The notes under the pieces were generated by a model that saw only the letters and a program-made list of their open reading frames with translations, was not told the DNA's origin and did not search any database. Shown piece by piece: positions 1 through 64,000 of a stretch of DNA of 64,000 nt. The translations under genes were made by a program, and so were the position numbers. Within the stretch, counting starts at the first letter, position 1, and each line of letters begins with the position of its first letter. The stretch is from positions 65,719 through 129,718 of the IMG/VR virus record IMGVR_UViG_3300020420_000009. One strand, 5' to 3'. The stretch is from a virus.

Positions 1-950
1 ATATCACTCACATATTACACTTGGGTGATTACTTTGATAGGAGAAAATACATAAACTTCTCTACTCTTAAACTTAATAGAGAACATTTTATTGAACCTAT
101 GTTAGAAAATGGTATGACTATGGATTTGATTATAGGTAATCATGATACTTATTTTAAAAATACCAACGAAGTAAACTCTCCCGACCTTTTATTATTTGAA
201 TCAGATAATATTAATGTTATCCAAGAACCCGAAGTAAAAAATTACGACGGCCTCGACATTGCATTAGTTCCATGGATTAATTCAGAAAACTATGCAGATT
301 CAGTTGAGTTTCTCATGTCTGCAAATGCAGCTATCTGTATGGGTCACTTTGAGTTTGAAGGAGCTCTTATGATGCCAGGCATGACATGTCAACATGGTCT
401 TGACCATTCATATGTTAGTAGATATGAAAAGGTTTACAGTGGTCACTTCCACCAAAAATCAGAGTTTGCAAATATCAAATATCTTGGTTCTCAAATGCAG
501 TTTACTTGGTCAGACTTTGGAGATAACAAATACTTCCATATCTTTGATACTGATACAAGAGAAATGCTACCAGTTGCAAATCCACTAACAATATTTGAAA
601 AGATATTCTATGACGATACTAAAGAAACTTTTGAAACTATTGTTAATAAAGATTATAGTAATGTCACTAACAAATTCACAAAGGTTATAGTAGTTAATAA
701 AGACAATCCATATTGGTTTGATTCGTTCTTAGATAAGATTCATGGTGCAAGTCCTCTACACTTAAATGTAGTAGACGACCACAAACACATGGATTTATTA
801 GACGATAAAGATGTAGAAAATGTAGAAGATACCCTAACCATACTCAACAAGTATGTAGAAGAGATGGATATACAGGGTAAGAAAAAGCCTCTTACAGATT
901 TAATGACTACATTGTATAATGAAGCGTTAGACGAACATACATTTATATGA
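1..950 (+). CDS. gp47: Recombination endonuclease subunit (Mre11/SbcD-like), 5' end outside the window
   Basis: Metallophosphoesterase motifs LGDYFD, GNHD, GHFE, SGHFH, YLGS; directly upstream of gp46. Confidence 0.93.
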   Translation, partial: ITHILHLGDYFDRRKYINFSTLKLNREHFIEPMLENGMTMDLIIGNHDTYFKNTNEVNSPDLLLFESDNINVIQEPEVKNYDGLDIALVPWINSENYADSVEFLMSANAAICMGHFEFEGALMMPGMTCQHGLDHSYVSRYEKVYSGHFHQKSEFANIKYLGSQMQFTWSDFGDNKYFHIFDTDTREMLPVANPLTIFEKIFYDDTKETFETIVNKDYSNVTNKFTKVIVVNKDNPYWFDSFLDKIHGASPLHLNVVDDHKHMDLLDDKDVENVEDTLTILNKYVEEMDIQGKKKPLTDLMTTLYNEALDEHTFI

Positions 951-2662
951 TAAAATTTACAGAAGTAAGATACAAGAATTTGTTATCTTCGGGAAATAGA
1001 TTTACAACAATACCACTGGATACTCACCAAACCACACTTATATTAGGTGAGAATGGAGCTGGTAAATCCACACTACTTGACGCATTGTGTTATGCACTTT
1101 ATGGTCGTGGATTCAGAAATCTCAAGAAAGACCTTCTTGTTAACTCAATCAATCAAAAAGAATTATTAGTCGAACTCGATTTTACTATCGGAAAGAAAGA
1201 CTATAAGATAGTCCGTGGAACCAAACCTAATAAGTTTGAATTATGGAGTAATGGTATCATGGTGAACCAAGACGCCAATGTTCGTGACTATCAAGACCAC
1301 CTAGAATCAAACATACTCAAAATGAGTTATCGTTCATTCACACAGGTGGCAATCCTAGGGTCTGCAAACTTTACTCCCTTTATGCAACTAAGAGCAAAAG
1401 ACAGAAGAAAGTTAGTAGAAGACCTTTTGGATATCACCATCTTTACAACCATGATGCAATTGTTGAGAAAAAAGAAATCTAATCATGCATTAGATATAAA
1501 AGAAAATCAACATGAGATTGCAATACTTGAAGAAAGAATCAATGGTTTGAATTCTCAACTTAATGCACTCCGTGAAAATAGAGAAGAAAAAATCTCTAAA
1601 TTCGAATCAACGATAGAGCAAACCCAAAGTAATATTAATAACTTATTAGGAGAAGTTGATGAAAAGACGCAAAATGTGGTGGAGAAAGAATCCAGTATCT
1701 CGAATAAAGATACTACGAAAACTAGATTGCAACAAACGATTGAAGTGGAGAAATCACTCGCAACAGCTAGAAAGAAAGCAGTTGCAGATATTGAATTCTA
1801 CGAAAACCATGACAACTGCCCAACATGTAAACAGGACTTAACAGGTGAACACAAAGAGAAATGTATTAAGGAGAAACAGGATAAGGTTGCAGAAATCAAG
1901 GAGGCGGTGTCAACTCTTGACAAACAAGTCAACGAACTCCATGAAGAAATCGATAGAATCAATACAGTTCAAGGAGAAATCACTGTAATTCAGAGAGAGA
2001 TAGGTTTAATTCAGACAGAAGTTGTATCTAATCAAAAGTATGTTATAAAACTACAAGGTGAAATAGAAACCTTAGAAAAAGAACAAGAAGGAAATACAGA
2101 TACACATGAGGATTTAACTAAAGCTGAAGATGATTTAGGTATACTTCAAGGTAAAAAGGAATTTTTGTCTGAACATGGTCACTATCTAGAGATTGCAACA
2201 CTTCTATTGAGAGACCAAGGTGTAAAAGAAAAGATAATAAAACAGTATGTCCCTATCATGAATAAACTAATTAACAAGTATCTTGCACAATTAGAGTTCT
2301 ATGTTGGGTTTGAATTAGACGAAAGTTTCGATGAAACAATCAAATCTAGATTTAGAGATGTATTCAAATACGAGAACTTCTCTCAAGGTGAGAAAATGAG
2401 GATTGACCTTGCATTACTATTCACATGGAGAGCAGTTGCAAGAATGAAGAACTCTGTAAACACTAATCTACTGATACTAGACGAGGTATTTGATAGTTCA
2501 TTAGACGCAAGTGGAACAGATGAATTCATGAAAATGTTGAATACACTAACAGAAAATACAAATGCATTTGTTATCTCTCACAAAGGTGATATACTATATG
2601 ACAAATTTGAGAATGTAATCAAGTTTGAAAAGTATAAAAACTTCTCAAGAATAGCAGAATAA
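947..2662 (+). CDS. gp46: Recombination ATPase subunit (Rad50/SbcC-like)
   Basis: Walker A GENGAGKS, central coiled coil with CPTC zinc hook, signature FSQGE, Walker B LILDEVFD, ISH. Confidence 0.96.
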   Translation: MIKFTEVRYKNLLSSGNRFTTIPLDTHQTTLILGENGAGKSTLLDALCYALYGRGFRNLKKDLLVNSINQKELLVELDFTIGKKDYKIVRGTKPNKFELWSNGIMVNQDANVRDYQDHLESNILKMSYRSFTQVAILGSANFTPFMQLRAKDRRKLVEDLLDITIFTTMMQLLRKKKSNHALDIKENQHEIAILEERINGLNSQLNALRENREEKISKFESTIEQTQSNINNLLGEVDEKTQNVVEKESSISNKDTTKTRLQQTIEVEKSLATARKKAVADIEFYENHDNCPTCKQDLTGEHKEKCIKEKQDKVAEIKEAVSTLDKQVNELHEEIDRINTVQGEITVIQREIGLIQTEVVSNQKYVIKLQGEIETLEKEQEGNTDTHEDLTKAEDDLGILQGKKEFLSEHGHYLEIATLLLRDQGVKEKIIKQYVPIMNKLINKYLAQLEFYVGFELDESFDETIKSRFRDVFKYENFSQGEKMRIDLALLFTWRAVARMKNSVNTNLLILDEVFDSSLDASGTDEFMKMLNTLTENTNAFVISHKGDILYDKFENVIKFEKYKNFSRIAE

Positions 2663-2670
2663 TATAAATA
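2663..2670 (+). promoter_or_regulatory. T4-type late promoter TATAAATA, 5 nt before the ATG at 2676
   Basis: Exact gp55 late consensus; no room for a Shine-Dalgarno. Confidence 0.8.
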
Positions 2671-2675
2671 GTTCT

Positions 2676-3128
2676 ATGAAGCAATTCAAGGACTTTATTA
2701 CCGAGAAAAAGGCACAGTTCCAAGCAGCTTTCTATAAAGGATTATACTCTAGAAATAAGGGTATATTCTATAGGGGAACAGGAAAGTCAACTGGGAACAA
2801 AATGCATGACCTACAAGCATTAGGTGCTGGAACATACTATTCATGGGATAAAAAAATGGCTCAAGCATTTGCAGATATGAAGGGTGGTGAAGTTAAAGAA
2901 TTTAAGTTCCCAAGAGGATTAAAACTTGCAGACGCACAGGGACAGGACATGGCAGAAATCAAAAAACTCATGGGTCTACAACCATGGGAATATAGTGGTG
3001 GTAAAATGTTTGCAAGAGTATTAAAAGTAGAATTTGAAAGAAAAGGATATGACGGTGTTATATCAGATAAGGCTGCAGAAGGAATAGTCATATTCGACAA
3101 AGCAAACAGGAAGGTTAAAGAACAATGA
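2676..3128 (+). CDS. Putative ADP-ribosyltransferase-like protein with capsid-targeting-like N-terminus
   Basis: MKQFKDFITE start; FYRGT...GAGTYYS...A..FA and GYDGVI patterns seen in ART-like domains of phage polyvalent proteins. Confidence 0.55.
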   Translation: MKQFKDFITEKKAQFQAAFYKGLYSRNKGIFYRGTGKSTGNKMHDLQALGAGTYYSWDKKMAQAFADMKGGEVKEFKFPRGLKLADAQGQDMAEIKKLMGLQPWEYSGGKMFARVLKVEFERKGYDGVISDKAAEGIVIFDKANRKVKEQ

Positions 3129-3844
3129 GACAAGTATTTAAAGATATCAGAACCATTATGGAAGCAGGCGGTGCAGCTGCAGGAAGCCTAGAGTTAATTA
3201 AGATTAGCTATGAAAAAGCAGTTGAACATGCAAAATCAAAAGGTATTGATATAGAAGAATTGATACCGTCATTCAAAAAGAATTTTGAAATGGCAAAAAA
3301 ACTAGCAGGAAAAGGATTTGCAAAAAGGTCAGAAATGCCTGTGATTAATAATAATGATGTCAAGAACTTCCAAACAAGATTAGCAAAAGGTTTCATAGAT
3401 ATAAACAAACCTTTTGCAAGTAATGAACTTCCCGATGAACCTTTTCCTCAAGGATTAGATAGGAACACAGGTAAAACATGGATTAAAAGTGGTTTACCAA
3501 GATTTGACGGAGATGCAAAAGACGATGTTGTCACTGTAAAATCAAAAAAGGTTGCAGTGAAAAACCTAAAACCTATACAGAAACAAATATATTTTGATAA
3601 GTCATTCAAAAACATTTCAGATTATGACTTCAAAGATACTATGAAGTTTTTAAAAAGTGATAGAAACATATTCATTATATCGAGTGACAATGCAATCATA
3701 GACGGACACCATAGATTTTTAACTGCAATGTTGATAGACCCAAACATAACTGTCAATACTATTGCAATCGATTTACCTATAAAACAATTATTACCTCTAA
3801 CACTATCTTATACAGACGCAATCGGCAATCAAAGGAACAAGTAA
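3125..3844 (+). CDS. ParB/Srx-like domain protein
   Basis: LKPIQKQI and IIDGHHR motifs. Confidence 0.7.
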   Translation: MRQVFKDIRTIMEAGGAAAGSLELIKISYEKAVEHAKSKGIDIEELIPSFKKNFEMAKKLAGKGFAKRSEMPVINNNDVKNFQTRLAKGFIDINKPFASNELPDEPFPQGLDRNTGKTWIKSGLPRFDGDAKDDVVTVKSKKVAVKNLKPIQKQIYFDKSFKNISDYDFKDTMKFLKSDRNIFIISSDNAIIDGHHRFLTAMLIDPNITVNTIAIDLPIKQLLPLTLSYTDAIGNQRNK

Positions 3845-5205
3845 TGTTTACTTTTCAAGAACTACAAGAAGCTTCACTTACTGAAGCCTCCACAGAACTA
3901 GAACAAGTTTTAGTTAAAGTATGTGGTGGAACCACACCAAGAAAAGAATACAAAAATGTTTTGAATGTTGCTCAAAAAAATGGTTTTGAAACAGCAGAAG
4001 AACTAGGTGAAGCAATTTTAAAAGACGCAGGAATCAGTCTCAAAAGTTCTAACCCAAGAATGTCAGAGAATGGCCCAACCGACCCCGACTGGGAAGGTGA
4101 TAACAATACTTCTAAAACAGATATCCACTTAGGAAAGTATGATATATCATTAAAAAGTGGAAGTGCAGCTCTAATGAGTGGTGGTTCAAAAGAATCTCGT
4201 GCAACATTCAAAGCTGCATTAGAACATGCAAAAACATCTTTTCAAGGAGACATAGCAGATATTGCAAAAGAAATAGAAGATGGATTCGAAAAAATGATTC
4301 CTTCAACTCTAGGACAAATGCCAGGCGGTATTATTGCACAGAAAGCAGGGACAGTATTCCCTCATGAAAAAGGTGGTTCACTTGGTCAAGGTAAACGAAA
4401 AATGGCAAAGGTTGGAAAACAAGCTTTTAAATTGTTAGATAAAGATGTGCAAGATACAGATGTCACTTATGATAAACCTTCAACTAAAGAATTCAAAAAA
4501 AGGTCAGGTTATAGATATTATAAAGACGATAGTGGGAAGGAATATGAATATAAAGGAGACTATCATTTACTCAAAGTAAACCCAAAATCATTTGATAAAG
4601 ACCAAATTCTAAAAGACGCAGACGACCTTCATACAAAAATGAAGAAACAAGTTGCAGACCTTTTCAATGGAAGTGAAGATTTTAAAAATGCATTTGTGTT
4701 TGAGGCAATGACTGGATACAAAAAATTCTCACCCTCCAATCCTAATATTGCAAAACATTTTTTAGTTGCAACCTTTCAAGGTAAAGGAAACTTAATAGGT
4801 GAGATTAAAAATTATAATGATTCATATGTTAAAAAAGTTGCAAAACAAGTCAAACCTGATGTTAGATTCAAAAGCACCTCTCAAGAAAAAACAATAGACA
4901 AGAAAAAACAAAAAACAGGATATAAAAGATTTTGGTCTGTTCTCCAACTTAATTATAATCATATACAAGAACAAACTGAAATCATGGAAAGAGAAGCAGA
5001 ACAAATGCAGAAGTTCTTATCAGAAGGACTTATATCAGAAGTTGCATTTTTCTCATGGGCAAAAAAGAAAATCAAAGGAATAGTAAACTATATTAAAAGA
5101 GTGTTCAACGCAGTCAAGAATTTTATAATGGAGAAAGTGGAAAATATACTGGAGTTTTTAGATATGACACCAGTAGTATCATTTAATAATACCGTTAAGT
5201 GGTAA
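3844..5205 (+). CDS. Putative PD-(D/E)xK nuclease-like virion protein
   Basis: SKTDIHLGKYDISLK pattern; MFTFQELQEASLTE start; amphipathic C-terminal helix after LISE. Confidence 0.45.
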   Translation: MFTFQELQEASLTEASTELEQVLVKVCGGTTPRKEYKNVLNVAQKNGFETAEELGEAILKDAGISLKSSNPRMSENGPTDPDWEGDNNTSKTDIHLGKYDISLKSGSAALMSGGSKESRATFKAALEHAKTSFQGDIADIAKEIEDGFEKMIPSTLGQMPGGIIAQKAGTVFPHEKGGSLGQGKRKMAKVGKQAFKLLDKDVQDTDVTYDKPSTKEFKKRSGYRYYKDDSGKEYEYKGDYHLLKVNPKSFDKDQILKDADDLHTKMKKQVADLFNGSEDFKNAFVFEAMTGYKKFSPSNPNIAKHFLVATFQGKGNLIGEIKNYNDSYVKKVAKQVKPDVRFKSTSQEKTIDKKKQKTGYKRFWSVLQLNYNHIQEQTEIMEREAEQMQKFLSEGLISEVAFFSWAKKKIKGIVNYIKRVFNAVKNFIMEKVENILEFLDMTPVVSFNNTVKW

Positions 5206-6717: not shown

Positions 6718-9114
6718 ATGAATGAGAGATTAACAAACCAAAAAGACAACCTTGCAAAACTAATGGCAACAGAGAATCTTACTGTTGTTCATAGGAAGGT
6801 TCCTACTGCATACTTTGATTTGAAGAATAGACTACTTTGTTGTCCTATTCTTAAAGAGGATATATCCTCTGAACTTTATGACTTGTTTATGGGTCATGAA
6901 GTTTCTCATGCATTACATACACCATATGAAGGTGTTCATTCTGCTGTCACTAAGAACAAGACTCTTAAAGGATATCTCAATGTTGTTGAAGATGTAAGGA
7001 TTGAGAGATTTATCAAAGACAAATATCCAGGCTTAAGAAAATCATTCTTCAAAGCATACAACGAACTTATGGAAATGGACTTCTTTGGAGTTCATGGAAG
7101 AGACCTAAACAAAGAAGCTTCATTGATTGACAAAATCAATTTGATTACTAAGTGTGGTTCTAGAGTAAATATCACTCTTAATAAAGAAGAAAAGTTCTTC
7201 CTTGATTGGGCAATGAAATGTGATACATGGGAAGAGGTTGAAGAATGTGCAAATGCAATCTACAACTGGTCAAAAGAAAACGAAACAAGAACAGAAGTTG
7301 ACGAGGACTTAGTTCCTCAAATGTTTGATGTTGGTGACGAAGACGAAGACGAAGATTACGAAGACGGAGAAGAAGAGAACGAAGGTGAGTCTTGGGAAGA
7401 TTCATACGGTGACTCTGATGAAGAAGAGGAAGAAGATAATCTTCCCGAAGTAGAACAAGAATCCAGTGGAAGTGGTGACCAAGAATCAGAAGAAGGTGAC
7501 GAAGAAACAGAAGAAGAAAACAAAACTACAGGAACTATTGCTGGTAAAGGAGCTCCTTCAACAGCAGAAGACTATGACGATGAAGACGGTGCAAGGGAAT
7601 CAATCACTGAACACAATGCACACAACAATGAAGAGATGTTTATTTCAGAAGACAACTCAACAAGATATCAAATCAAACTAGATGATGAGTTCAAGAAAAA
7701 GAATTTCTTCAAAGACTATGTGACTTCATACAAAGAAGTTGACAAGGTCTTTACAGATTACCACAATAATCAAGAAGACAAGTATTACTCAGAAAAAATG
7801 GAAGAGTCACTTAGAAGAGCAAAACATTCTGCAAAAAAACTAGAATCAAAAAACAAATCAATTGTCATGCACATGGCAAAAGAATTTGAAATGAGACAAA
7901 CTGCACAAAGAGCTGTTCATGCATTCAGTGGTAAAACTGGAAAACTAGACATGAACAGACTTGCAAAATATCAGATTGTTGATGATGTTTTCAAAAGAGT
8001 GACTTACATGCCTGACGGTAAAAACCATGGTGTCAATATTCTAGTTGACTGGAGTGGTTCTATCCACAATGAAGTTATGGATATTCTAGAACAAACATTT
8101 ATTCTTACAATGTTCTGTAGAAAAGTTGATATCCCTCACAGAGTTTACTTATTCAGTGACGCTTATCACTGTGGTGAAGATGACTGGAGAGGTGACAGGT
8201 CTACATTGATTGAATTATTCTCAAATGAAATGAATGGAAGAGAATTCAAAAAAGGTTTGATATGGGCTGCTTCACTTTACAACGAATACCTTCAAGAGAA
8301 GTTTGGTTATAGTTGGGGAAGAGGTTGGGAAAAGAAAGTTCAAAAGTATGACGAGTGGTATAAAGAGATTCAAGACCCACTAGGTAAATTTGACAGTGAA
8401 GGTAATCATATTGGTGGATACATTGACTTCCCTAGAGAATGGATTCCTCACCAGTTCAGACTAGGTGGAACACCTCTTGACCAAGCACTTGTTGCCACAA
8501 GAACACTTCTAAAAGATTTTATCAGAAACTACAATGTTGAGAAATCAATATTGACAGTTATCACAGACGGATATTCACACACAGCTGATTCATTGAAAAA
8601 ATCAGATGACGAGTATGCAAGTGAGAGAGAACAAAGAGGTAATGGAGATAGTTGGAATACTAAACATATCAGAGAAATTATTGACCCTTATTCAAAAAGA
8701 GTTTATCCTTTATCATCAGATGGAAGATACTACAGTTCAACTTTCAAAACTACTCAAAACCTACTAGACTGGTTGAGTAAAGAAACAGGAACTACGGTCA
8801 CTGGATACTTTGTTTGTTCTAAGAAACAAGAAGCAACTAATGTTATCAGAGAGGCAGAAAAAGTTTCTTACGAAACAGATATTGACGATGCTTGGAGACA
8901 AGCAAGAAAAGGTGGGTTCATATTAGAAGCTCACGGATACAACAAATTATTCATAACCGCTGCTTCAAATCTTGGAGTGGAAGGTTCAGACGAACTAGAT
9001 GACGAGTTAGTCGACGCTAAAAAAACTAGAGTGTTGGCTGCTTTTAAGAGAAACCAAAAGTCAAAGACAACATCTAGGTTTTTGACTAACGAATTTATCA
9101 AGGAGATAGCATAA
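6718..9114 (+). CDS. CobT-like protein: HExxH peptidase-like domain, acidic linker, VWA domain
   Basis: HEVSH, NVVEDVRIE, long D/E tract, MIDAS DWSGS, GGTPL, VITDG; upstream of a MoxR/CobS ATPase. Confidence 0.8.
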   Translation: MNERLTNQKDNLAKLMATENLTVVHRKVPTAYFDLKNRLLCCPILKEDISSELYDLFMGHEVSHALHTPYEGVHSAVTKNKTLKGYLNVVEDVRIERFIKDKYPGLRKSFFKAYNELMEMDFFGVHGRDLNKEASLIDKINLITKCGSRVNITLNKEEKFFLDWAMKCDTWEEVEECANAIYNWSKENETRTEVDEDLVPQMFDVGDEDEDEDYEDGEEENEGESWEDSYGDSDEEEEEDNLPEVEQESSGSGDQESEEGDEETEEENKTTGTIAGKGAPSTAEDYDDEDGARESITEHNAHNNEEMFISEDNSTRYQIKLDDEFKKKNFFKDYVTSYKEVDKVFTDYHNNQEDKYYSEKMEESLRRAKHSAKKLESKNKSIVMHMAKEFEMRQTAQRAVHAFSGKTGKLDMNRLAKYQIVDDVFKRVTYMPDGKNHGVNILVDWSGSIHNEVMDILEQTFILTMFCRKVDIPHRVYLFSDAYHCGEDDWRGDRSTLIELFSNEMNGREFKKGLIWAASLYNEYLQEKFGYSWGRGWEKKVQKYDEWYKEIQDPLGKFDSEGNHIGGYIDFPREWIPHQFRLGGTPLDQALVATRTLLKDFIRNYNVEKSILTVITDGYSHTADSLKKSDDEYASEREQRGNGDSWNTKHIREIIDPYSKRVYPLSSDGRYYSSTFKTTQNLLDWLSKETGTTVTGYFVCSKKQEATNVIREAEKVSYETDIDDAWRQARKGGFILEAHGYNKLFITAASNLGVEGSDELDDELVDAKKTRVLAAFKRNQKSKTTSRFLTNEFIKEIA

Positions 9115-11192: not shown

Positions 11193-11857
11193 TGAAAATT
11201 AGTAATGATACGAGGAGTGTTCTTAAGAACTTTTCTACTATTAACTCGGGTATAAGAGTTAAGACTGGAAATAAACTTGAGACCATATCCAATATGAAAA
11301 ATATTCTTGCAGTGGCAACGGTAGATGAATCGTTCCCTCAAGATTTTAGTATATATAACTTGCCTGAGTTCTTGGGTGCAACTTCATTGTTGTCAGACCC
11401 CGAGTTTGAATTCGGAGATACAAGTTTGACGGTTGCAGACGATAACTCAAGTCTTGCATATTTTTATGCAAGTGAAGGAATGGTCACTGCACCCGATAAA
11501 ATGATAACCATGCCTGACGCAGAGATTGTAATTAATCTTTCTTCTACACTCTTAAGTGAGCTACAGAAAGCTGCAAGTGTATTAGGAGTTAATGACATGG
11601 TGTTATCCAGTGACGGAACAGTTATCAGACTGGAAGTGACTGATAAAAAGAATCCAACTTCAAATACATTCTCAAGAATAGTAGGTGAAGGAAACGGAGT
11701 ATCTTATACAATGAATTTCAAGATTGAAAACTTGAAAGTTCTTGACGGAAATTATGAGGTTTCTGTATCAAGTAAAGGTATTTCACACTTCAACAATACA
11801 GATATTGATTTGGAGTATTTTATTGCATTAGAGCCAGATTCAAAATACAATGCCTAA
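11189..11857 (+). CDS. gp45: Sliding clamp
   Basis: LKNFSTINSGI, IYNLPEFL, YFIALE; upstream of the clamp loader. Confidence 0.93.
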   Translation: MMKISNDTRSVLKNFSTINSGIRVKTGNKLETISNMKNILAVATVDESFPQDFSIYNLPEFLGATSLLSDPEFEFGDTSLTVADDNSSLAYFYASEGMVTAPDKMITMPDAEIVINLSSTLLSELQKAASVLGVNDMVLSSDGTVIRLEVTDKKNPTSNTFSRIVGEGNGVSYTMNFKIENLKVLDGNYEVSVSSKGISHFNNTDIDLEYFIALEPDSKYNA

Positions 11858-18566: not shown

Positions 18567-19225
18567 AGAACACATTATTAACAATCATAGGGATATTATC
18601 TATCCCTATGGTTTTTGCAGGCCCAACTGATGATAACCATATTCATGTGGAACAGGTCGGTAATGACGGAGATAATGTTTCATTGATTTTAAATCAATTC
18701 GGTTATGGTAATACCATAGAATTCTCTTATGCACACTCAAGTAATACTTTCAACCTAACACAAAATGGTGGTGGTAATAAAATATCATGGGTTCCATATT
18801 GGGGTTCAGGAAAGAGTTGGGGTGGTGATGTAGACGGTTCAAACAATGTAGAAAATGTTTTACAATATGACGGTGCAGAATATGGAAGACACATATGGGG
18901 CGACAACAACACCGTAGACATATATCAAAGTGGAGACCATACACATTACATAGACATTCATGTTGACGGTGTAGAACATGATTCATGGCAAGAAGGAACA
19001 GGAACACATTATAGTCACACATATTTTTATGGAAACACAGACGACTCAATTACAAATTTATTACAAAAAGGAAGTGCAAATCATAATGCACAGATTAGAA
19101 TACAAGGGTCAGAACATACAACACTAAATCTTATTCAACAAGGTTCAACAAATCAATCATACACACTAACTCAAAATTGTTATACAGTTGGTGGTTGCAC
19201 GGTAAATGTGACTCAAGGACAGTAA
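18554..19225 (+). CDS. Second curlin-like secreted protein (CsgB/A-like)
   Basis: Signal peptide; repeats EQVGNDGDN, LNQFGYGN, LTQNGGGN, IYQSG, LLQKGSAN, IQQGSTN; terminal Cys pair. Confidence 0.72.
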   Translation: MDILKNTLLTIIGILSIPMVFAGPTDDNHIHVEQVGNDGDNVSLILNQFGYGNTIEFSYAHSSNTFNLTQNGGGNKISWVPYWGSGKSWGGDVDGSNNVENVLQYDGAEYGRHIWGDNNTVDIYQSGDHTHYIDIHVDGVEHDSWQEGTGTHYSHTYFYGNTDDSITNLLQKGSANHNAQIRIQGSEHTTLNLIQQGSTNQSYTLTQNCYTVGGCTVNVTQGQ

Positions 19226-21972: not shown

Positions 21973-22470
21973 ATGTATGAAGTTGGAAGGATTATTCCTA
22001 GAATAAGATTTAAAGTCAGAGTTGACGGTGAATGGGATACTATTGATAGTCATGTCATAACCGAAGGTAAAAGAGTCGTAATCTTTGCACTGCCTGGCGC
22101 ATTCACACCAACATGTTCTACTTTTCAATTGCCTGGCTTCGAGGAAGCATATTCTAAATTCAAAGAAAAAGGAATAGACGAAATTTACTGTTTATCAGTT
22201 AATGATACATTCGTCATGAATTCTTGGTTTCAAGCTCAAGGAATAGAAAAAGTAAAAGCATTGCCTGACGGAAGTGCAATGTTCACAATAGCACTAGGTG
22301 CAAATGTTCAAAAAGATAACTTAGGTTTTGGAACTAGGTCTTGGAGATATGCAATGGTTGTAAACGATACTAGAGTCGAACAGATATTTTTCGAAGATGG
22401 TTTTGGTGACAATGCAGAATCAGACCCATACGAAGTTTCTTCACCCGAGAATGTTTTAGAAAATCTTTAA
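21973..22470 (+). CDS. Peroxiredoxin, Prx5 type
   Basis: LPGAFTPTCS, SVNDTFVM, GFGTRSWRYAM. Confidence 0.93.
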   Translation: MYEVGRIIPRIRFKVRVDGEWDTIDSHVITEGKRVVIFALPGAFTPTCSTFQLPGFEEAYSKFKEKGIDEIYCLSVNDTFVMNSWFQAQGIEKVKALPDGSAMFTIALGANVQKDNLGFGTRSWRYAMVVNDTRVEQIFFEDGFGDNAESDPYEVSSPENVLENL

Positions 22471-22478: not shown

Positions 22479-22520
22479 TTGTCAATATGACTATGTTTAT
22501 GTTAATATAGTCATATGACT
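22479..22520 (+). promoter_or_regulatory. Sigma70-type promoter of the methyltransferase, inside inverted repeats
   Basis: TTGTCA-18 nt-TAATAT; ATATGACTAT (22485-94)/ATAGTCATAT (22507-16); palindrome AGTCATATGACT (22509-20) spans the ATG. Confidence 0.72.
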
Positions 22521-23768
22521 TACTTTCAATACAGTTTAAAAGACCTACAGGAACGCAGTTCCGAAAAGAAATTTTCTTATATTACATTCTTTGCAGGCGG
22601 TGGTGGTTCATCGTGTGCATATAAACTCGCAGGTGGTGATGTTAGATACATGAATGAGTTTCAACAGATTCATGTAGACACCTATCTTGCAAATTTCCCA
22701 AACACAGTTCATGAATGTAAAGATATTAAACAAGTCACAGGTGAAGGTATTATGGAACTCACTGGACTTAAAAAGTTTGAACTGGACATACTAGACGGTT
22801 CACCACCTTGTCCACCATTCTCTATGGCTGGAACTAAAAGAGAAGGTTGGGAACAAGAGAAAATGGCTTACGGTATGAAACAACAAAATATCGAAGACCT
22901 TACTTGGGAACAAATTAGAATCACAAAAGACTTAATGCCTAAAGTTATTGTATGTGAAAATGTAAAAGGTCTATCTATGGATTATGCAAGAGACCACCTA
23001 AACAAAATGGTAAACGATTTTGAAGCATTAGGTTATTCAGTCACATGGAAAGTTATGAAAGGTCATGAACATGGAGTTCCACAAAAGAGAGAAAGGGTAT
23101 TCATGGTTGGTGTTAGAGACGATGTATTAGATACAATCGGAATGCCATTCATGTGTTTGAGTGGTTTATTTCCACAACCTTCTAATGAAAGAACAAGTAT
23201 AGGTGAAGCAATTAATGATTTAGTAGACGACCCTACAAATGTCGAAGATGCTAAATACCTAGAACAGGCAATGATTGAAAGTTCAAAAGGTCATTGGGTG
23301 CATGGATTTGAAAAACACCCCGACCCCGAACTTTCTCACTGCACTCCCTGTAAAGGGATTGACGGAGTAAACGGAGATAACATGTCTTATATTTCTATAG
23401 GAGACCATATTGTAAAACCATGGTATCAAGAAAACATAAGACTAGGAAACATTCCACCCGAGAATGAAAAACATTCTTATTATATGTCAAGGATTGTTCC
23501 CGAAAATCTTCCAGCTCATTCACTAACTGAACAAGGTTGTCAACCAAAATTTATGGGTGGTAATCATTTTCATTATAGTGGTAAGAGAATATATACTCCA
23601 AAAGAAATGGTTAGACTTATGTCTTTACCAAATGATTATAAAATGACAGGTGATTACAATGACAAAGGTGCAAGGATAGGACTTATGGTTGCACCACTAT
23701 GTCTATATTACCTAGTAGAACAAATTAAGGAGCAAATATTGGAACCATGGAATTCGTTGCAAAAGTAG
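22515..23768 (+). CDS. DNA cytosine-C5 methyltransferase
   Basis: Motif I FAGGGG, IV GSPPCPPFS, VI ENVKG, VIII PQKRERVF, IX-X RLMSLP...IG. Confidence 0.93.
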   Translation: MTYFQYSLKDLQERSSEKKFSYITFFAGGGGSSCAYKLAGGDVRYMNEFQQIHVDTYLANFPNTVHECKDIKQVTGEGIMELTGLKKFELDILDGSPPCPPFSMAGTKREGWEQEKMAYGMKQQNIEDLTWEQIRITKDLMPKVIVCENVKGLSMDYARDHLNKMVNDFEALGYSVTWKVMKGHEHGVPQKRERVFMVGVRDDVLDTIGMPFMCLSGLFPQPSNERTSIGEAINDLVDDPTNVEDAKYLEQAMIESSKGHWVHGFEKHPDPELSHCTPCKGIDGVNGDNMSYISIGDHIVKPWYQENIRLGNIPPENEKHSYYMSRIVPENLPAHSLTEQGCQPKFMGGNHFHYSGKRIYTPKEMVRLMSLPNDYKMTGDYNDKGARIGLMVAPLCLYYLVEQIKEQILEPWNSLQK

Positions 23769-24745
23769 ACCACGGGTTTAAAGAAACCTTTGATAAATGG
23801 AATGGTAAGTTTCTGAAAGAAGATTCTTATGACGAAGTTATATCTTCAATTGGAGTAAAAGAAGATATCATAAAGATATCTAAACCAGTTGCAGCTATAG
23901 ACGGTGATTCACCACCACTTGCATATATTGTTAAGAATGCATATACTGGAAAAGATTATCAAGATATAAAGGACACATTGTTTTCTATAGACGATGTATC
24001 TACTATGAGAGCAAATGCATCAGGCCCAATCGACCACGAAGAAATGAAAAAGAAAGGTTTGATTGAAGGAGTCCATTATAAATTAAGAACACCTAACTCT
24101 TACTACCCTCTTAAAAAGAATGGTAAGTTCAATCGTATTGCAGAGGCAAATGCAATTCATTCAGTATTGATTGGATATAAAAGAGGAAGATTTACAGGAA
24201 TGATTAATCCTAGTGGTTGGATGAAAAAGAAATCTAATCAAGAGAAATGGGAAGTATTACAAAGAATTGCACCCCTCAATGAGGCTGCATTAAAGAAAGC
24301 CTCCCCCAGTGTGTGGCGTCAGCAGAGAGCATTTGCTGACAACTATATTGAAAGTAAGTATCACATAGGGGGAGCACCTATTACAGCTTTATCTGCAAAC
24401 AGATATTCAAGTGAAGGGACTGCAAAAATGTCTGCACACTTAGACGGTAAAGATTTAGAATTTGGATTGACAACAATGTGTGTTTTTAGAATCGGTGATT
24501 TTAAAGGTGCATATCTTTGTTTTCCAAGATACGGAATTGCAATTGAAGCTGACGATGGTGATGTATTGATTGCAGATTCTAATGAATTACATGGAGTCAC
24601 ACCTATCGAAGGAAACGGTGTAAGACTATCATGTGTTGCATATTGTGATGAACATGTTGCAACAAAGGGTATCGGTGGAAAATCCGAGAATCCTATCGGG
24701 CCCCATAATAAAGATAAACAAGGGTCACTCGATGAATTCTTTTAA
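23747..24745 (+). CDS. TET/JBP-family 5-methylpyrimidine dioxygenase
   Basis: AHLDGKD (HxD), ELHGVTP, RLSCVAYC; overlaps the C5-MTase stop. Confidence 0.8.
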   Translation: MEFVAKVDHGFKETFDKWNGKFLKEDSYDEVISSIGVKEDIIKISKPVAAIDGDSPPLAYIVKNAYTGKDYQDIKDTLFSIDDVSTMRANASGPIDHEEMKKKGLIEGVHYKLRTPNSYYPLKKNGKFNRIAEANAIHSVLIGYKRGRFTGMINPSGWMKKKSNQEKWEVLQRIAPLNEAALKKASPSVWRQQRAFADNYIESKYHIGGAPITALSANRYSSEGTAKMSAHLDGKDLEFGLTTMCVFRIGDFKGAYLCFPRYGIAIEADDGDVLIADSNELHGVTPIEGNGVRLSCVAYCDEHVATKGIGGKSENPIGPHNKDKQGSLDEFF

Positions 24746-24799: not shown

Positions 24800-25795
24800 A
24801 TGCAATTGAATTATGATATAGAGAGAAGCAGAAAAGCTTATCCTCCCATTACTGGTAATGGAATCAAAAAAAATCTCGGGAGACAGGACGGCCCGTTGTC
24901 TAGGTTGGTGACAACAGACGAAAATGGTGTTCTAAAACAACCAAGGCAAATTGCTTTGGAAGACAACCAATATGGAATAGTAAAAGACTTTCAACAATTT
25001 GGAGTTGATTACAGTAAAGAACCTATGGTTGTTGAACTGAGAGGTGACGGACAACTCGAACTCATTTCGGGTTTCGGTAGACTTTCTGCATTATTATCAA
25101 TGGGTATCAATAGATACTTTTACGAAGTCTTACAATTTGAGTCTCCAAAAGACAAAATCAAATGGAAAAGACTATTCAATACTGGAGACGACCATAGAAA
25201 AAAGGGAACTCCAAATACACTAGACACATACAAAAAAGGTTTAGTGGAAATGAAACATGCAAGTTGTATCAATTGGAGAGATGACGATGTTTGTAGAGCA
25301 GAAATCAGAGATATGTCTGATGGAACTCTTTCAGATACAGAAGTTGAAACTGTATTGAATAGATTTAGACAGAGTAATACTAAAGAAGAAAATGTTGTAG
25401 GATATACAACAAATGAAGCTAACAAAACAGCAAAACTATTAGGACAACCAACTAAAGGTTATGTCAAAAATACTTCTAATCCTGCTTGGGATAGAAGTGG
25501 TTATTGCAGATATGAAGGTAATTTTAGTAGTAAAATCTACGATATAGTAGAACTATATGATAACTATGGTGCAAAAATTGAAATCGTAGGTTTCATAATG
25601 AATCCAGTTCACGACAGAATTGAGAAACAAAGAAAAGATTATCTCAAAGGTTTCAACAGAGCAAAAGCTTGGATGAAAAAACATCTAAAGCCTGAGTATC
25701 ATGACATAGTTGTGTTCAAAGGATTTCTTCCACAAATTACAACTGCCGACCCAAAACAAAATGGTTTACCTAGGGAGAGAGATTTAGTATTATGA
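24800..25795 (+). CDS. Hypothetical protein, possible divergent ParB-like domain
   Basis: EPMVV...ELISGFGRL pattern; AAGGAG RBS. Confidence 0.5.
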   Translation: MQLNYDIERSRKAYPPITGNGIKKNLGRQDGPLSRLVTTDENGVLKQPRQIALEDNQYGIVKDFQQFGVDYSKEPMVVELRGDGQLELISGFGRLSALLSMGINRYFYEVLQFESPKDKIKWKRLFNTGDDHRKKGTPNTLDTYKKGLVEMKHASCINWRDDDVCRAEIRDMSDGTLSDTEVETVLNRFRQSNTKEENVVGYTTNEANKTAKLLGQPTKGYVKNTSNPAWDRSGYCRYEGNFSSKIYDIVELYDNYGAKIEIVGFIMNPVHDRIEKQRKDYLKGFNRAKAWMKKHLKPEYHDIVVFKGFLPQITTADPKQNGLPRERDLVL

Positions 25796-26328
25796 TATTT
25801 CTAATTGGAGGAATACCATGTTCGGGTAAGTCAACACTTACCCGAAATCTCATTAGTCGACTCCCCGACCCAGTTGATATTGAACCTAAAAAACTATTCA
25901 AGTGTCAAGAACATGGAGATATATTAGTTGTAGGTAGATATCCCGAGGGAGAAACTTTTGGTGGAACAGATAAATTATCTCATGGTTCTATTCCACATTT
26001 TAGAGAATTCATTGACGAGGTCACACCTAGATATAAACATACTATTATAGAAGGGGATAGATATTTTCGTAATGAAGATATAGAATGGTTGTTAGATAAT
26101 CATGAAGCAAAAGTTATCATACTAACAGTTCATATAGAGATAGAACATGATAGACATAATTTGAGAGGAGATACTCAATCGGAAGTATGGTTGCAAGGTA
26201 GAAGAACTCAAATAGATAATATTAGAAAGAACTTTAATCTCATGGATAGATTAATCATACATGATAATTATGATATACAACAATCTATGAAAATGGAAGA
26301 TTACATATATGGAAAAATTATTCAGTAA
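25792..26328 (+). CDS. P-loop nucleotide kinase of the type linked to base-modification loci
   Basis: GGIPCSGKST, FGGTDKLS, IIEGDR, RGDTQSE.W. Confidence 0.7.
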   Translation: MIFLIGGIPCSGKSTLTRNLISRLPDPVDIEPKKLFKCQEHGDILVVGRYPEGETFGGTDKLSHGSIPHFREFIDEVTPRYKHTIIEGDRYFRNEDIEWLLDNHEAKVIILTVHIEIEHDRHNLRGDTQSEVWLQGRRTQIDNIRKNFNLMDRLIIHDNYDIQQSMKMEDYIYGKIIQ

Positions 26329-26626
26329 AACATACATAGTTGTAGAAAACCCACATGAGAAGGACGCTGCAATAGAAATTATTGACGGTGAATGGAAAGG
26401 ATTAGTATACCAATATGGTAAAGTAGAGTTCGTTGAGAATAAGAATCATTTAAACTTTCAAAGAACAATACGAAGGATACCCGAAGGTGGTGACCTTGAT
26501 GAACTCCTAAATAATAACGAACTCAACAATCTTATGGGAGACATACTTGTTGAACTTATGCAAGAACAAATCGAGAGGGATAAGCATGAACATAGAAAAA
26601 TTGAAGGAACAAATAAAGCGACATGA
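26309..26626 (+). CDS. Conserved T4-like hypothetical protein
   Basis: G.VYQYGKVEF...GDILVEL. Confidence 0.6.
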   Translation: MEKLFSKTYIVVENPHEKDAAIEIIDGEWKGLVYQYGKVEFVENKNHLNFQRTIRRIPEGGDLDELLNNNELNNLMGDILVELMQEQIERDKHEHRKIEGTNKAT

Positions 26627-27032
26627 AGGTGAAGTATTGGAAGTATACGCAGATTCATTGGGTTATCTTACACTGGGTGTTGGACACCTCATACAACCTA
26701 ATGACCCCGAACATGGGCAACCAGCTGGAACTCCAGTAAGTCAAGAAGTAGTTGACGAATATTACGCAATAGATTTTGACAAACATTTAGAAGAAACAAA
26801 ACATGTCATAGGATATGATGTTTTTGACGGACTTCCTGGCGAGATACAAGAAGTTTTAGTTAACATGTGTTTCAACTTAGGTGGAACAAGATTAGGTAAA
26901 TTTAGAAACATGTTGAATGCAGTAGAAGACCACGATTGGGAAAAAATGGCAGTTGAGATGGAAGATAGCCGTTGGTTTAGACAAGTTGGAAGAAGGTCTG
27001 TAGAGTTGCAAGAAATTGTGAGAAATGTATGA
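26586..27032 (+). CDS. Phage lysozyme (GH24, T4 e-like)
   Basis: HEG...Y.DSLGYLTLGVGH (E-8-D-5-T), NMCFNLG, DSRW.RQV..R. Confidence 0.88.
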   Translation: MNIEKLKEQIKRHEGEVLEVYADSLGYLTLGVGHLIQPNDPEHGQPAGTPVSQEVVDEYYAIDFDKHLEETKHVIGYDVFDGLPGEIQEVLVNMCFNLGGTRLGKFRNMLNAVEDHDWEKMAVEMEDSRWFRQVGRRSVELQEIVRNV

Positions 27033-30346: not shown

Positions 30347-30769
30347 ATGGCATATAGTAAAAAAGTAGTTGACAGATTTGAGTCAGTATTAAATAACCCC
30401 GAGAAACATTCGGTTGGTCGATTCGACCCTAAAGACCCTAATGTTGCAACAGGTATGACAGGAGCTCCTGCCTGTGGTGATGTCATGAAATTACAATTGA
30501 AGTTAGACGAAGACGAAAGAATCATAGATGTTAAATTTAAAACATACGGTTGTGGTTCAGCGATAGCTTCTTCTACATTGTTTGTCGATATGTTAAAAGG
30601 CAAAACAATTGAAGAGGCAAAACTTGTAAAAGATAAAGAAATTGCAGAAGCGTTAGAACTTCCTCCAATCAAATTACATTGTTCAGTTCTTGCAGAAGAT
30701 TCTATCAAGAAAGCAATAGAAGATTGGGATAACAAGACGAGGCATAGAAAACACAACCAATATGTATAG
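30347..30769 (+). CDS. iscU: Fe-S cluster scaffold IscU
   Basis: GAPACGDVM, FKTYGCGSAIASS, LELPPIKLHCSVLAEDS; GATAAATA 5 nt before the ATG. Confidence 0.93.
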   Translation: MAYSKKVVDRFESVLNNPEKHSVGRFDPKDPNVATGMTGAPACGDVMKLQLKLDEDERIIDVKFKTYGCGSAIASSTLFVDMLKGKTIEEAKLVKDKEIAEALELPPIKLHCSVLAEDSIKKAIEDWDNKTRHRKHNQYV

Positions 30770-55515: not shown

Positions 55516-55767
55516 ATGAATGAATTCTTTATAAAAGTCAAAGATTTTCTTGTATCTACCTTTTGGTGGTTTATTGATTTGTTTAGAGAAAGATATCAAA
55601 TCACTGTATCATTCAATAGAGAGTATGGTGACGCAGATGATAAGCAATATATTGCAAAGAAAATCTTTAAACAAACAGAGAAACATTTAAAGTTTAAAGA
55701 TGAAGACGGTTGTATGGTAGAGTTCAGAAGCTCTGGTGGTCTTCATTATATAATCAAGGAGTTATAA
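55516..55767 (+). CDS. Hypothetical late protein
   Basis: CTAAATA 5 nt before the ATG at 55516. Confidence 0.65.
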   Translation: MNEFFIKVKDFLVSTFWWFIDLFRERYQITVSFNREYGDADDKQYIAKKIFKQTEKHLKFKDEDGCMVEFRSSGGLHYIIKEL

Positions 55768-60179: not shown

Positions 60180-60185
60180 TACCAC

Positions 60186-60215: not shown

Positions 60216-60222
60216 GGGAACC

Positions 60223-61031: not shown

Positions 61032-61032
61032 C

Positions 61033-61689: not shown

Positions 61690-61713
61690 TAATAGAAACA
61701 TTATGGAGAAACT

Positions 61714-62604: not shown

Positions 62605-63173
62605 AACACTATCACAAAAAGTATACAGGATTCTTCACAGGAGATGAATGTAAACAGATTTGTGATATCATAAAACGAGATAAGAACCTTATATTATCAT
62701 ATACTGATATAGACGATAATCAGAATGGATATGAGGGTCTTACTCGGTCTTTTACGGTTTACAACTGGTTATATCACCCCGACATACAACCACTGAATAT
62801 ACCACAAAGAATAGCTAAACTCAAAGAAATAGAATCAGATTATCTCTTTCTACAATGTTGGTGTAATGAACTAGAGACAGGGAAAGGATTACAAAGACAT
62901 GCACATGGGTTTAGAAAAGAACTCTTTTGGAACTGTAATATCTTTCTTGGTGGTGATTATAATGAGACATGGTATGAAGATAGTGGGAACATACAAAACG
63001 AGGTCGGAGACCTACACCTATTCACCAGTAATCTAGAACACGAAGTCTATCCCAATACAGGGAAGGAGAACAGATATTCTATGGCGATAGATGTTCACCA
63101 GTCGTTCTATCATTGTCGGAATCTATACAATTCGGGCCGATTCTATATACACAAACGAGACTCGCGGTCTTAA
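62586..63173 (+). CDS. 2OG-Fe(II) oxygenase (HxH type)
   Basis: QCWCN...HAH, GDL.LF...LEH.V, RYSMA.D. Confidence 0.78.
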   Translation: MDKSTVEHYHKKYTGFFTGDECKQICDIIKRDKNLILSYTDIDDNQNGYEGLTRSFTVYNWLYHPDIQPLNIPQRIAKLKEIESDYLFLQCWCNELETGKGLQRHAHGFRKELFWNCNIFLGGDYNETWYEDSGNIQNEVGDLHLFTSNLEHEVYPNTGKENRYSMAIDVHQSFYHCRNLYNSGRFYIHKRDSRS

Positions 63174-63805
63174 GGTTGTTTGGTATCAATCCCAAAGATA
63201 TTCATCATAGTCACCCAACGGTCTGAATTAGGGTCACCCGTATAACTATGGAATGAATAGTCGAAAGAAGGAATAAACATATAAGCTTTATTGACTTCCC
63301 AACCCAAATCCACAGGTTCCTCAGAACCATGCAAACCATTAAAAGTCGTAGGGACAGACTCTACAGGACTAAGCGGATTTAATACAGTCATTAATTTACC
63401 ACCGTCAGGGTGAGGTGGATAGGGTTGCATACCTTTAGGATTACCTTGCACCTTCTCATTAACACAGGTATGGTCATAGATATTCAATGCAAAGGGGTCA
63501 ACACCTTCCTTTTGTCCTATAGTAGTGAAGAGACAGGTATATTTAGCTGCTGGGAATAACTCTTGAAGATAATTCGGTATATTACCATTACGATAATGTT
63601 CATACAAGAGTGCAGATTTATTACTCGGAGGTATAGGTAGAGTGACATTAGGGTATAAATCAGAGGGTATATCACCAAAATCTATTAAATCTTGAGTCTG
63701 TCTTTGGAGTTCTTCCTCCGTAAGGTAGTTAGGAATCTCCCAAACAGGCCCGTATTTGTTGATATCTAGGGGGCTTAAATATATTTCAAAGGGTAAGAAG
63801 TGCAT
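63170..63805 (-). CDS. 2OG-Fe(II) oxygenase, the only credible minus-strand gene
   Basis: PHPD..KLMT, W.VNKAYMF, SFHSY, RW; AATAAATA 6 nt before its ATG on the minus strand. Confidence 0.72.
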   Translation of the reverse strand: MHFLPFEIYLSPLDINKYGPVWEIPNYLTEEELQRQTQDLIDFGDIPSDLYPNVTLPIPPSNKSALLYEHYRNGNIPNYLQELFPAAKYTCLFTTIGQKEGVDPFALNIYDHTCVNEKVQGNPKGMQPYPPHPDGGKLMTVLNPLSPVESVPTTFNGLHGSEEPVDLGWEVNKAYMFIPSFDYSFHSYTGDPNSDRWVTMMNIFGIDTKQP

Positions 63806-64000
63806 ACTGAATATTTATTATGTGTATACTATTTAGAGTGAATAAAAATAATACTCAGAGGTGATAATGGTGAAAGTGTGGATATTTTGCTTTTAGCCGT
63901 TCGCCTTCGGAGGTCTTAATCACATATTTTGTTGGGGGTCAAGGCGTCTCGGAGTAAATTGTCAGGCGAAATAAGGCCATATATTTGGCCATGGAGCCTT

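Follow-up and report, generated by a model that had tools for sequence, protein, structure and literature searches.

The stretch of DNA analysed here, in the following called the window, comprises 64,000 nt and represents the second half (bases 65719-129718) of the 129,718-base IMG/VR virus record IMGVR_UViG_3300020420_000009. The record as a whole is referred to as G000; its completeness is estimated at 71%. The window has a G+C content of 35.7% and 88 called genes, almost all of them on the + strand. At 22515..23768 (+) it carries a homologue of C5-cytosine DNA methyltransferases (MTases), a protein of 417 aa with a catalytic SPPC motif that matches PF00145 at E 7.8e-51 over profile positions 2-323 of 324. 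This gene overlaps by 22 nt with the following one (23747..24745, +), which encodes a TET/JBP-type 2-oxoglutarate-Fe(II) dioxygenase (5mYOX) of 332 aa (PF12851, 47.7 bits with a cut-off of 34.9, E 1.3e-12). The MTase-TET pair named in the original prediction, a model's reading of the letters alone, is thus present as PF00145 and PF12851 open reading frames (ORFs) in overlapping frames. In addition, a compositional rule extends over the entire window (1..64000, without strand): six short words are absent, GGATG, ACTAGT and GCAGCA are nearly absent, and CCWGG, CCAGA, CGWCG and CCTGCA occur almost solely where a GpC step lies over their first C.

The SPPC motif is conserved in all six aligned homologues of the MTase, and in the dioxygenase the HxD motif (AHLDG), the distal His (ELHG) and the Arg can be recognized by eye. 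We found no close cellular homologue of the window MTase, the best one being 39% identical. Two more genes follow on the same strand. The first (24800..25795, +) encodes a 331-aa protein that matches no Pfam family at E<=1 and shows a weak ParB-N-like signal; a profile built from 12 homologues reached Noc/ParB chains at E 0.058-0.72 and 2 of the 12 family members matched ParB_N at E 0.026, values that are all below significance. The second (25792..26328, +) encodes a 178-aa P-loop protein that is weakly nucleotide-kinase-like (PF18751, P-loop kinase3, E 0.0015, below the cut-off), and its PHROG matches are a family of small terminase subunits and families of guanylate/thymidylate kinases. It is kept beside the MTase/TET pair, with 58 blast hits among loci. 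Judged from sequence, the 331-aa protein may be an accessory of the MTase and the dioxygenase and the P-loop protein may be a tailoring enzyme, while a family scan of the 10 ORFs neighbouring the pair revealed no glycosyltransferase. G000 has a second methyltransferase outside the window, at 963-1844 (+) of the genome (293 aa, PF01555, motif I before CPPY). It adjoins, on the 3' side, what we take from a reading of the sequence to be the C-terminal end of a gp32-like single-stranded DNA-binding protein.

Expected word counts for the window were obtained from 300 shuffles in which synonymous codons were permuted inside each of the 88 called genes, keeping proteins and codon usage. As had been noticed by eye, GATC, GTAC, ACGT, CCGG and GTWAC do not occur at all, with expectations of 155.1 +/- 10.0, 124.1 +/- 8.5, 100.2 +/- 8.1, 24.1 +/- 3.9 and 81.5 +/- 7.1 copies, respectively; the sixth absent word is GGWCC (31.6 +/- 4.0 expected). 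Each of the six was present in at least 11 copies in every shuffle, and none of the 300 shuffles reached the observed count for any of them or for GGATG, CCAGA and ACTAGT. The depletion of target words therefore holds against a null that preserves both proteins and codon usage, which places the phage among those showing restriction avoidance.

The words that do survive in the window are distinguished by their flanks. All 18 CCWGG sites have a G on the 5' side or a C on the 3' side, as predicted, compared with a mean of 27% and a maximum of 47% in the shuffles, and the form without a GpC flank, HCCWGGD (where H is not G and D is not C), is missing (0 vs 23.9 +/- 3.8). An example is the CCAGGC at 7027..7032 (+), shielded by its 3' C; the other 17 sites start at 375, 4321, 17592, 22093, 22132, 26835, 33338, 37137, 37173, 37963, 39252, 42365, 49969, 51752, 51875, 56040 and 56572. 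The asymmetric word CCAGA/TCTGG is found 14 times (9 CCAGA and 5 TCTGG), 13 times as GCCAGA/TCTGGC. The shielded sites are the GCCAGA at 11833..11838 (+), with its 5' G, those with CCAGA starting at 30885, 32477, 37783, 39257, 42260, 53823, 56380 and 59841, and the TCTGGC at 6472, 16364, 40060 and 59299. The claim that every CCAGA/TCTGG is of this form fails at one place, a TCTGGT at 55732..55737 (+). HCCAGA is reduced to one copy (75.7 expected), and GCCAGA is undepleted (13 vs 9.0). Shielded CGWCG sites, such as the CGACGC at 9012..9017 (+), are also found at 49476, 50742, 51110 and 54382, with an unshielded exception at 245. The nine positions cited in the original prediction were all correct, and the proposed count against a codon-preserving shuffle together with the flank test for CCWGG and CCAGA revealed both depletion and flank dependence.

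Essentially the same picture emerges from the whole of G000. GTAC, ACGT, GTWAC and GGWCC are absent (300, 207, 198 and 63 expected), and GATC (1 vs 352), CCGG (5 vs 59), GGATG (14 vs 123) and ACTAGT (1 vs 29) are rare. In total, the phage has eliminated about a dozen short words that are probably nuclease targets. Every one of the 55 CCWGG sites is GpC-flanked; HCCWGGD stands at 0 vs 61.6 +/- 5.5, and the GpC-flanked forms give 64 flank counts vs 20.2. GpC overlap is likewise found in 23/27 CCAGA (HCCAGA 4 vs 153, GCCAGA 23 vs 20.1), in 8/9 CGWCG and in 5/5 CCGG, and CCTGCA survives after a G (GCCTGCA 9 vs 3.8; HCCTGCA 2 vs 58). When every 4-mer and 5-mer of G000 was scanned for rescue by each 5' base, the rescued words with counts above zero were G|CCAGA, G|CCTGG, G|CGTCG, G|CCGG and G|CCAGG, all of which begin with C and are rescued by G. 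The base at position -2 is unconstrained at shielded sites and the determinant is therefore the GpC step itself. Read from the sequences, none of the fully purged words has a C able to follow a G outside the word, which fits the logic of a shield. CCAGA, thought from the outset to be an asymmetric target, indeed behaves asymmetrically and independently of strand in the genome counts. Retention of sites conditional on GpC is thus confirmed as real and far beyond chance, the cleanest single result being that GCCAGA stays at expectation alongside a ~40-fold loss of HCCAGA. Among the 14 surviving GGATG, 11 are TGGATG; an obligatory Trp-Met pair as the reason for every survivor is partly true at most, with just 6 Trp-Met pairs in the called genes.

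A GpC inside a word does not appear to spare it when the next base is A. HCCTGCA, with its internal GCA, is purged as mentioned above, GCAGCA is found 5 times vs 92 expected, and GCATCC is not rescued (2 vs 18.7; all G000 counts). The shielding contexts that we see are GCC and GCG, and GCA seems to provide no shielding. The notion that words are purged unless they touch a GpC consequently stands for the five unrelated words of the flank scan and does not extend to GpC in the GCA context, so 'any GpC' is probably too wide. GCAGCA/TGCTGC is not rare in Melnitz and HTVC008M, two cultured phages considered below, and is rare in nearly all loci of the G000 clade, cassette-less ones included (25 in 970 kb; 22 in 374 kb).

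The effect is most conspicuous in the coding of Pro-Gly. This dipeptide is necessarily written CCN GGN and always creates a CCWGG or a CCGG; CCWGG survives because Pro-Gly cannot be encoded without CCNGG. In G000, Pro-Gly codon pairs account for 54/55 CCWGG and 4/5 CCGG, and the 58 Pro-Gly pairs of the called genes touch a GpC without exception. Those lacking a 5' G use GGC in 37/37 cases, although GGC is a rare codon (157 of 2847 Gly codons), and those with GGA, GGT or GGG have a 5' G in 8/8. Flanked CCWGG sites reach three times their expectation because these forced pairs are written touching GpC. The pressure even appears to reach protein composition, with Pro-Gly at about half the frequency expected from amino-acid frequencies (58/103 in G000); the corresponding values are 49/107 in the related genome G001, 70/113 in Melnitz and 117/104 in HTVC008M. 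Gly-Pro, which does have an escape, is written GGC CCN or GGG CCN in 41/41 cases in the genome, exactly as suggested. Pro-Glu was said to be usually CCC GAA; this is the commonest form without being the majority (34 of 86 in G000, followed by 22 CCT GAA, 14 CCC GAG, 8 CCT GAG and 8 CCA GAR). Avoidance of GTAC has also left its mark on codon pairs: among the 124 Val-His/Gln pairs of G000, no Val GTA precedes a CAN codon, although the genome has 818 GTA codons in other positions.

G000 is an uncultured marine T4-like phage with no close cultured relative at the DNA level, megablast matches being limited to short patches in cyanophage (replication) genes. The identity of its DNA polymerase to any phage record does not exceed 47.6% (45% to Melnitz and 45% to HTVC008M). 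By gene content it groups with marine myoviruses of the Melnitz/HTVC008M type, sharing with them peroxiredoxin, Hsp20 and a curli-type locus that includes a CHASE2 cyclase. The cyclase gene lies at 19177-21066 (+) and encodes a 629-aa CHASE2 plus class III adenylate/guanylate cyclase protein (PF05226, PF00211) whose counterparts are annotated beside curli genes in both phages.

Homologues of the window MTase, 56-96% identical, were found in 80 IMG/VR loci (970 kb), in which 131/134 CCWGG are flanked, 124/127 Pro-Gly pairs are shielded, and GGWCC and CCGG occur 7 and 41 times, respectively. These and the following tallies are taken over related, partly overlapping loci, some from the same contig, and count sites rather than independent events. 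All 3 unshielded CCWGG, both GGWCC and 3/4 CCGG of locus L040 lie within its positions 1-4000, upstream of the MTase, a segment that may be a mosaic or recombinant piece from a phage not keeping the rule. For each of the words GATC, GTAC, ACGT, GTWAC, CCAGA, GGATG and CCTGCA, there are MTase lineages that lack it and others that have it at normal density, even at 92-93% MTase identity. A variable purged set combined with a constant flank rule fits changing host nucleases and one constant shield.

Two cultured phages provide a contrast. Melnitz, which infects OM43 strain H5P1, encodes an MTase and a TET protein 53.6% and 54.7% identical to those of the window, and its C5-MTase is the single match when the complete genome is scanned for PF00145, PF01555 and PF02086. 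Here, 68/68 CCWGG and 70/70 Pro-Gly are shielded, GGWCC is absent (0 vs 61), and CCTGCA is lost or kept according to the preceding base (HCCTGCA 2 vs 94; GCCTGCA 22 vs 12). In HTVC008M (SAR11 host; NC_020484.1), the same three families gave no match and the rule is not found: 112/136 CCWGG are unflanked, 98/117 Pro-Gly are unshielded and GGWCC is at expectation (73 vs 69). This phage purges other words, namely TCGA (2 vs 194), CGCG (1 vs 34) and CCGA/TCGG (16 vs 445, the last expectation from base composition). In spite of the lack of an MTase match, each of the 5 surviving CGWCG of HTVC008M has a GpC flank.

The MTase, the dioxygenase and the two ORFs that follow occupy a slot between a peroxiredoxin gene on the left (21973..22470, +; PF08534 E 2e-23) and a phage lysozyme gene on the right (26547..27032, +; PF00959 E 1.8e-8), both borders being supported by synteny; the DNA polymerase gene follows the lysozyme at 27822-30338. 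With the DNA polymerase as bait we fetched relatives and obtained 65 loci spanning the peroxiredoxin-lysozyme gap, whose content varies. A C5-MT/TET pair is found in 37 loci, with 3/108 CCWGG unflanked, and a 482-aa PF01555 protein with the motif FTSPPYF in 9 loci (0/54). Two loci carry QueD/QueE/QueC/FolE 7-deazaguanine genes (0/10) and two others, L131 and L133, a TET-associated glycosyltransferase (1/9). The remaining slots contain a DruA-like ORF only (12 loci, 49/70) or nothing that we recognised (3 loci, 16/20). In total, 4/181 CCWGG are unflanked in the 50 loci with a modification cassette, compared with 65/90 in the 15 loci without one, and all 15 of the latter lack the rule.

The slots with a different cassette deserve attention. 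G001 is a 151-kb genome, 83% complete, whose polymerase is 77.6% identical to that of G000. It has no PF00145 match and keeps the rule fully: 52/52 CCWGG are flanked and 49/49 Pro-Gly shielded, GGWCC is absent (0 vs 86), HCCAGA is nearly lost (2 vs 185) and GCCAGA is retained (15 vs 22). Its slot (L119, 7087-8535) encodes the 482-aa protein, an N6_N4 MTase of the SPPY type with a partial PF01555 match, for which a sequence search of the PDB gave no match; we take the FTSPPYF (SPPY) form to be typical of N4-cytosine methylases. The 7-deazaguanine set (L145 1703-5860; L152 2431-7973) comprises QueD, a radical-SAM QueE-like protein, QueC, GTP cyclohydrolase I, a DUF5591 protein and a 430-aa protein without known family. 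In L145, 7/7 CCWGG are shielded, and in the 52-kb G005, which also carries 7-deazaguanine genes, 10/10 CCWGG are flanked on both sides; 5/5 CCGG, 3/3 CGWCG and 2/2 CCAGA of G005 are flanked too. Comparison with relatives lacking the MTase-TET pair, which the original prediction had proposed, thus cuts both ways: HTVC008M, without an MTase, lacks the rule, and relatives with an SPPY methylase or 7-deazaguanine genes in the slot keep it.

The GC-containing words TGCA, AGCT and GGCC had been described as common. By count they are: TGCA is in excess (591 vs 361 in the window; 1199 vs 746, i.e. 1.61x, in the genome), GGCC is enriched (45 vs 28.6 in the window) and AGCT stands at its expectation (152 vs 157 in the window). 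However, TGCA is not a spared restriction site; this and a positively selected site are rejected as far as the data go, since the excess resides in T-ending codons followed by GCA. Such junctions with Ala GCA make up 1044/1185 TGCA in the called genes of G000, where T precedes 62% of GCA codons vs 34% T at third positions overall and AGCA is depleted in step (699 vs 1096). TGCA is therefore common because T precedes Ala GCA codons; Leu TTG is not preferred before CAN codons (29/189 vs 374/2846). Mutational decay of 5-methylcytosine (5mC) as the cause of this bias is judged unlikely, the biased base presumably not being the deaminated one. The excess is 1.61x in G000, 1.57x in G001, weak in Melnitz (1.19x) and lacking in HTVC008M (0.80x), and does not follow the methylase type, being present in G001 as well and weak in Melnitz. 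Conceivably, GC steps are thereby placed in the one context that would be left untouched on either strand by a GCB-specific enzyme.

Two further words behave unevenly among these phages. AGCT is at 0.36-0.45 of expectation in Melnitz, G001 and HTVC008M and at 0.94 in G000; per kb it amounts to 1.74 in the C5-MTase loci vs 0.55-0.75 in the N4-type and empty-slot (class 2) groups. No copy of GCSGC is present in G000 (0 vs 13) and just 5 are present in 1.05 Mb of C5-MTase loci, yet the word is undepleted in Melnitz (63 vs 45) and G001 (40 vs 17). It could be a further nuclease target, or its loss could reflect avoidance of a modification-dependent enzyme.

Among solved structures, the nearest to the window MTase is PDB 8yf3 (E 3.6e-72), which is SpCmoX of Synechococcus phage S-B43, a C5-carboxymethyltransferase with a crystal structure and a requirement for a GC motif, as described from nanopore sequencing and in vitro work (PMC12783734). 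The window MTase has the SPPC motif in common with CmoX, and ParBc-domain neighbours are described as common in the CmoA-CmoX-CmoY system (PMC12783734), which recalls the weak signal of the 331-aa ORF. The two systems differ in that CmoX has a carboxyl-binding Arg350, where the window MTase has Leu (GLMVAP vs GRMVPP), and in that the neighbour is an amide ligase there and a TET protein here. CmoA, sought with TIGR00740, gave no match in the 129.7-kb record, which at ~71% completeness leaves its absence uncertain. With Leu in place of Arg350 and CmoA not found, we do not file the window MTase as a CmoX. In the 139 of 214 kb of S-B43 that were examined, CCGG is nearly gone and its 3 survivors, a small sample, are all GpC-flanked; CCWGG is not purged there.

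Another parallel is provided by the phage C5-MTs paired with TETs described by Burke et al. 2021 (PMC8256090). According to that article, these enzymes favour GpC, mostly as GC[C/T], with one clade accepting GC[C/T/G] and not GCA and another any GpC; such targets match the shielding contexts deduced here, GCC and GCG and not GCA. As in those clusters (PMC8256090), the window has a C5-MT gene beside a TET/JBP gene on a viral contig of marine origin, with a protein weakly resembling P-loop kinases close by. Clusters of that type have a glycosyltransferase as a possible tailoring enzyme, whereas none was found next to the window pair, and the part of PMC8256090 available to us mentions neither a footprint across the genome nor a conditional avoidance of sites. 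The same source mentions M.CviPI, the GpC methyltransferase of a chlorella virus. Likened by description, it is a virus-encoded C5-MTase as in the window; it is an orphan with GpC dinucleotide specificity from a eukaryotic virus, without a TET partner, and no genome footprint is reported for it in the accessible text of PMC8256090.

We think that these observations are probably explained by a post-replicative mark on the GpC step of the phage DNA, most likely written by the C5-MTase of the window and oxidised by the TET protein, which blocks host nucleases at the words it overlaps. That a GpC-directed mark exists is well supported; the window methylase (22515..23768), as the candidate writer, we infer. 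The C5-MTase would make 5mC and the overlapping TET-type dioxygenase would oxidise it to 5-hydroxymethylcytosine, a mark that the ParB-like and P-loop neighbour proteins may elaborate further. Host restriction would be the selective agent. Its nucleases would be blocked where the first C of their word is the C of a GpC, i.e. at G|CCWGG, G|CCAGA, G|CGWCG, G|CCGG and G|CCTGCA, and words unable to overlap a GpC in this manner (GATC, GTAC, ACGT, GTWAC, GGWCC, GGATG and ACTAGT) would have been removed by synonymous change. The shield would matter most for Pro-Gly, written CCW GGC or placed after a G. No explanation that we found, other than a protective mark at GpC, accounts at once for the five unrelated words, for both strands and every reading frame, and for the forced Pro-Gly sites. 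The original prediction that the phage modifies C in GpC and so shields overlapping sites gains from the GC motif of SpCmoX, from the pairs described in PMC8256090 and from the contrast with HTVC008M. It needs amending in two respects: the rule is not specific to the MTase-TET pair, and GCA is probably not covered.

Several points weigh against this interpretation. G001, with no PF00145 match in 151 kb, keeps the rule fully, and G005 and L145 with their 7-deazaguanine genes do likewise. As it is kept with an SPPY or a 7-deazaguanine cassette and no detectable C5-MTase, the rule does not depend on the MTase-TET pair in particular. It follows that different chemistries share one target step or that the shield has another writer. 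G000 itself has the second, PF01555-type methyltransferase at 963-1844 outside the window. The alignment of the window MTase by phmmer to SpCmoX covers query residues 5-245 and 348-410, leaving the stretch between uncovered. We assume the target-recognition region to lie between residues 245 and 348, which is the stretch that the alignment misses, and a GC specificity is thus not simply transferable. Phages without a cassette show no purging of CCWGG or GGWCC at all, so differences between hosts are confounded with the presence of the cassette, and cassette and rule may both simply follow the host. Finally, with loci that are related and partly overlapping, the counts are not independent events.

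The main rival follows from these points and assumes that the GpC shield is written by another factor, such as a host enzyme, an unrecognised phage enzyme shared by every phage that keeps the rule, or the second methylase of G000 (PF01555), while the slot cassette does something else. That the rule holds with three or four different slot cassettes, that G001 has no PF00145 match and that G000 has a second MTase would all be accounted for in this way; moreover, the host of Melnitz is reported to encode a type II methylase (PMC9004378). We nevertheless consider another writer unlikely. Melnitz has no PF01555 or PF02086 match, its sole PF00145 match being its own C5-MTase, and the second MTase of G000 has no counterpart that we could find in G001, G005, Melnitz or HTVC008M. 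A writer common to the genomes keeping the rule was not found either: the ORFs present in G000, G001 and Melnitz and not found in HTVC008M are fibre ORFs, a staphylococcal-nuclease-like ORF and small ORFs, none of which is a plausible writer. The nuclease-like ORF (137 aa, PF00565 E 3.8e-12) lies at 30762-31175 (+), directly after the DNA polymerase, and occurs in G005 as well. The lack of a close cellular homologue of the MTase and the absence of the rule from all 15 empty-slot loci also argue against this rival.

In a second alternative, the dioxygenase would belong to the ParB-dependent thymine dioxygenases (5mYOX clade C1) and make 5-hydroxymethyluracil; the protective hypermodification would be on T, and the C5-MTase would play a minor or separate role. 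Phage T-dioxygenases that depend on ParB and are linked with P-loop kinases have been described, one of them preferring NTG (PMC13229309), and the weakly ParB-like and P-loop kinase-like ORFs downstream of the dioxygenase recall this association. However, these clades are described as having no directly neighbouring C5-MT (PMC13229309), whereas here the C5-MT gene overlaps the dioxygenase gene. The shielding flank is a G before C and needs no T, and the ParB signal is below significance. Furthermore, the rule and the TGCA excess are both kept in G001, whose only Tet_JBP match lies outside the slot and is sub-threshold (15.9 bits with a cut-off of 34.9). We therefore regard a mark on T as very improbable. 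Hardly credible, lastly, is the absence of any modification, with host nucleases sparing G-preceded sites or a codon-pair or translational preference such as GGC after Pro: most sites are indeed Pro-Gly in one reading frame, which could allow a codon-pair effect to produce part of what is seen, but the -1 G rule is shared by five words that are unrelated and lie in different frames, a 5' G serves whichever Gly codon is used (8/8), GCCAGA stays at expectation while HCCAGA falls ~40-fold, HTVC008M, deposited in the same virus family, leaves its Pro-Gly largely unshielded, and the purged set differs between close relatives with a constant flank rule.

Returning to the GpC mark written from the slot, the gap between peroxiredoxin and lysozyme/polymerase might be a swap site at which different cassettes all write the same GpC step. 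Chemically distinct sets, namely C5-MTase plus TET, an SPPY (N4-cytosine-type) methylase, a 7-deazaguanine pathway and TET-associated glycosyltransferase genes, would replace one another there while the GpC rule persists throughout the genome. The coding sequence, with 49-70 Pro-Gly pairs per genome written to touch GpC in the three whole genomes counted, would lock the target, and non-orthologous replacement would be constrained by genome composition. We put this forward tentatively, as a possibility on the doubtful side; if true, any replacement enzyme would have to keep the GpC target.

Avoidance of restriction sites, in particular of palindromes, in phage genomes was reportedly studied by Sharp 1986, Rocha et al. 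2001 and Rusinov et al. 2018. As in classic avoidance, synonymous changes have eliminated short palindromes and asymmetric words, and related phages do not all lack the same ones. The difference is that avoidance here is conditional on one flanking base and coupled to a phage-borne modification cassette; it also extends to the protein level. Full-text literature searches listed no report of flank-conditional site avoidance.

Phage C5-MT/TET clusters have been characterised outside a natural phage-host setting, their role in nature being given as a prediction in PMC8256090 as far as it was available to us, and the methylase of Melnitz is mentioned merely as a possible protection in the corresponding part of PMC9004378. 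The phage sequences presented here suggest that a sparse GpC mark has protected real sites over evolutionary time, and they suggest which contexts count, namely GCC and GCG and probably not GCA. A dinucleotide-specific enzyme would be of particular worth to such a phage because Pro-Gly is not encodable without CCNGG. Melnitz and OM43 strain H5P1 form a cultured pair in which this could be tested, with HTVC008M as a contrast. The sequences also suggest the nuclease specificities that the phage meets, the restriction-modification specificities of its hosts remaining predictions; close relatives do not purge the same words, and the purged set could thus serve to deduce the restriction-modification repertoires of hosts from metagenomes.

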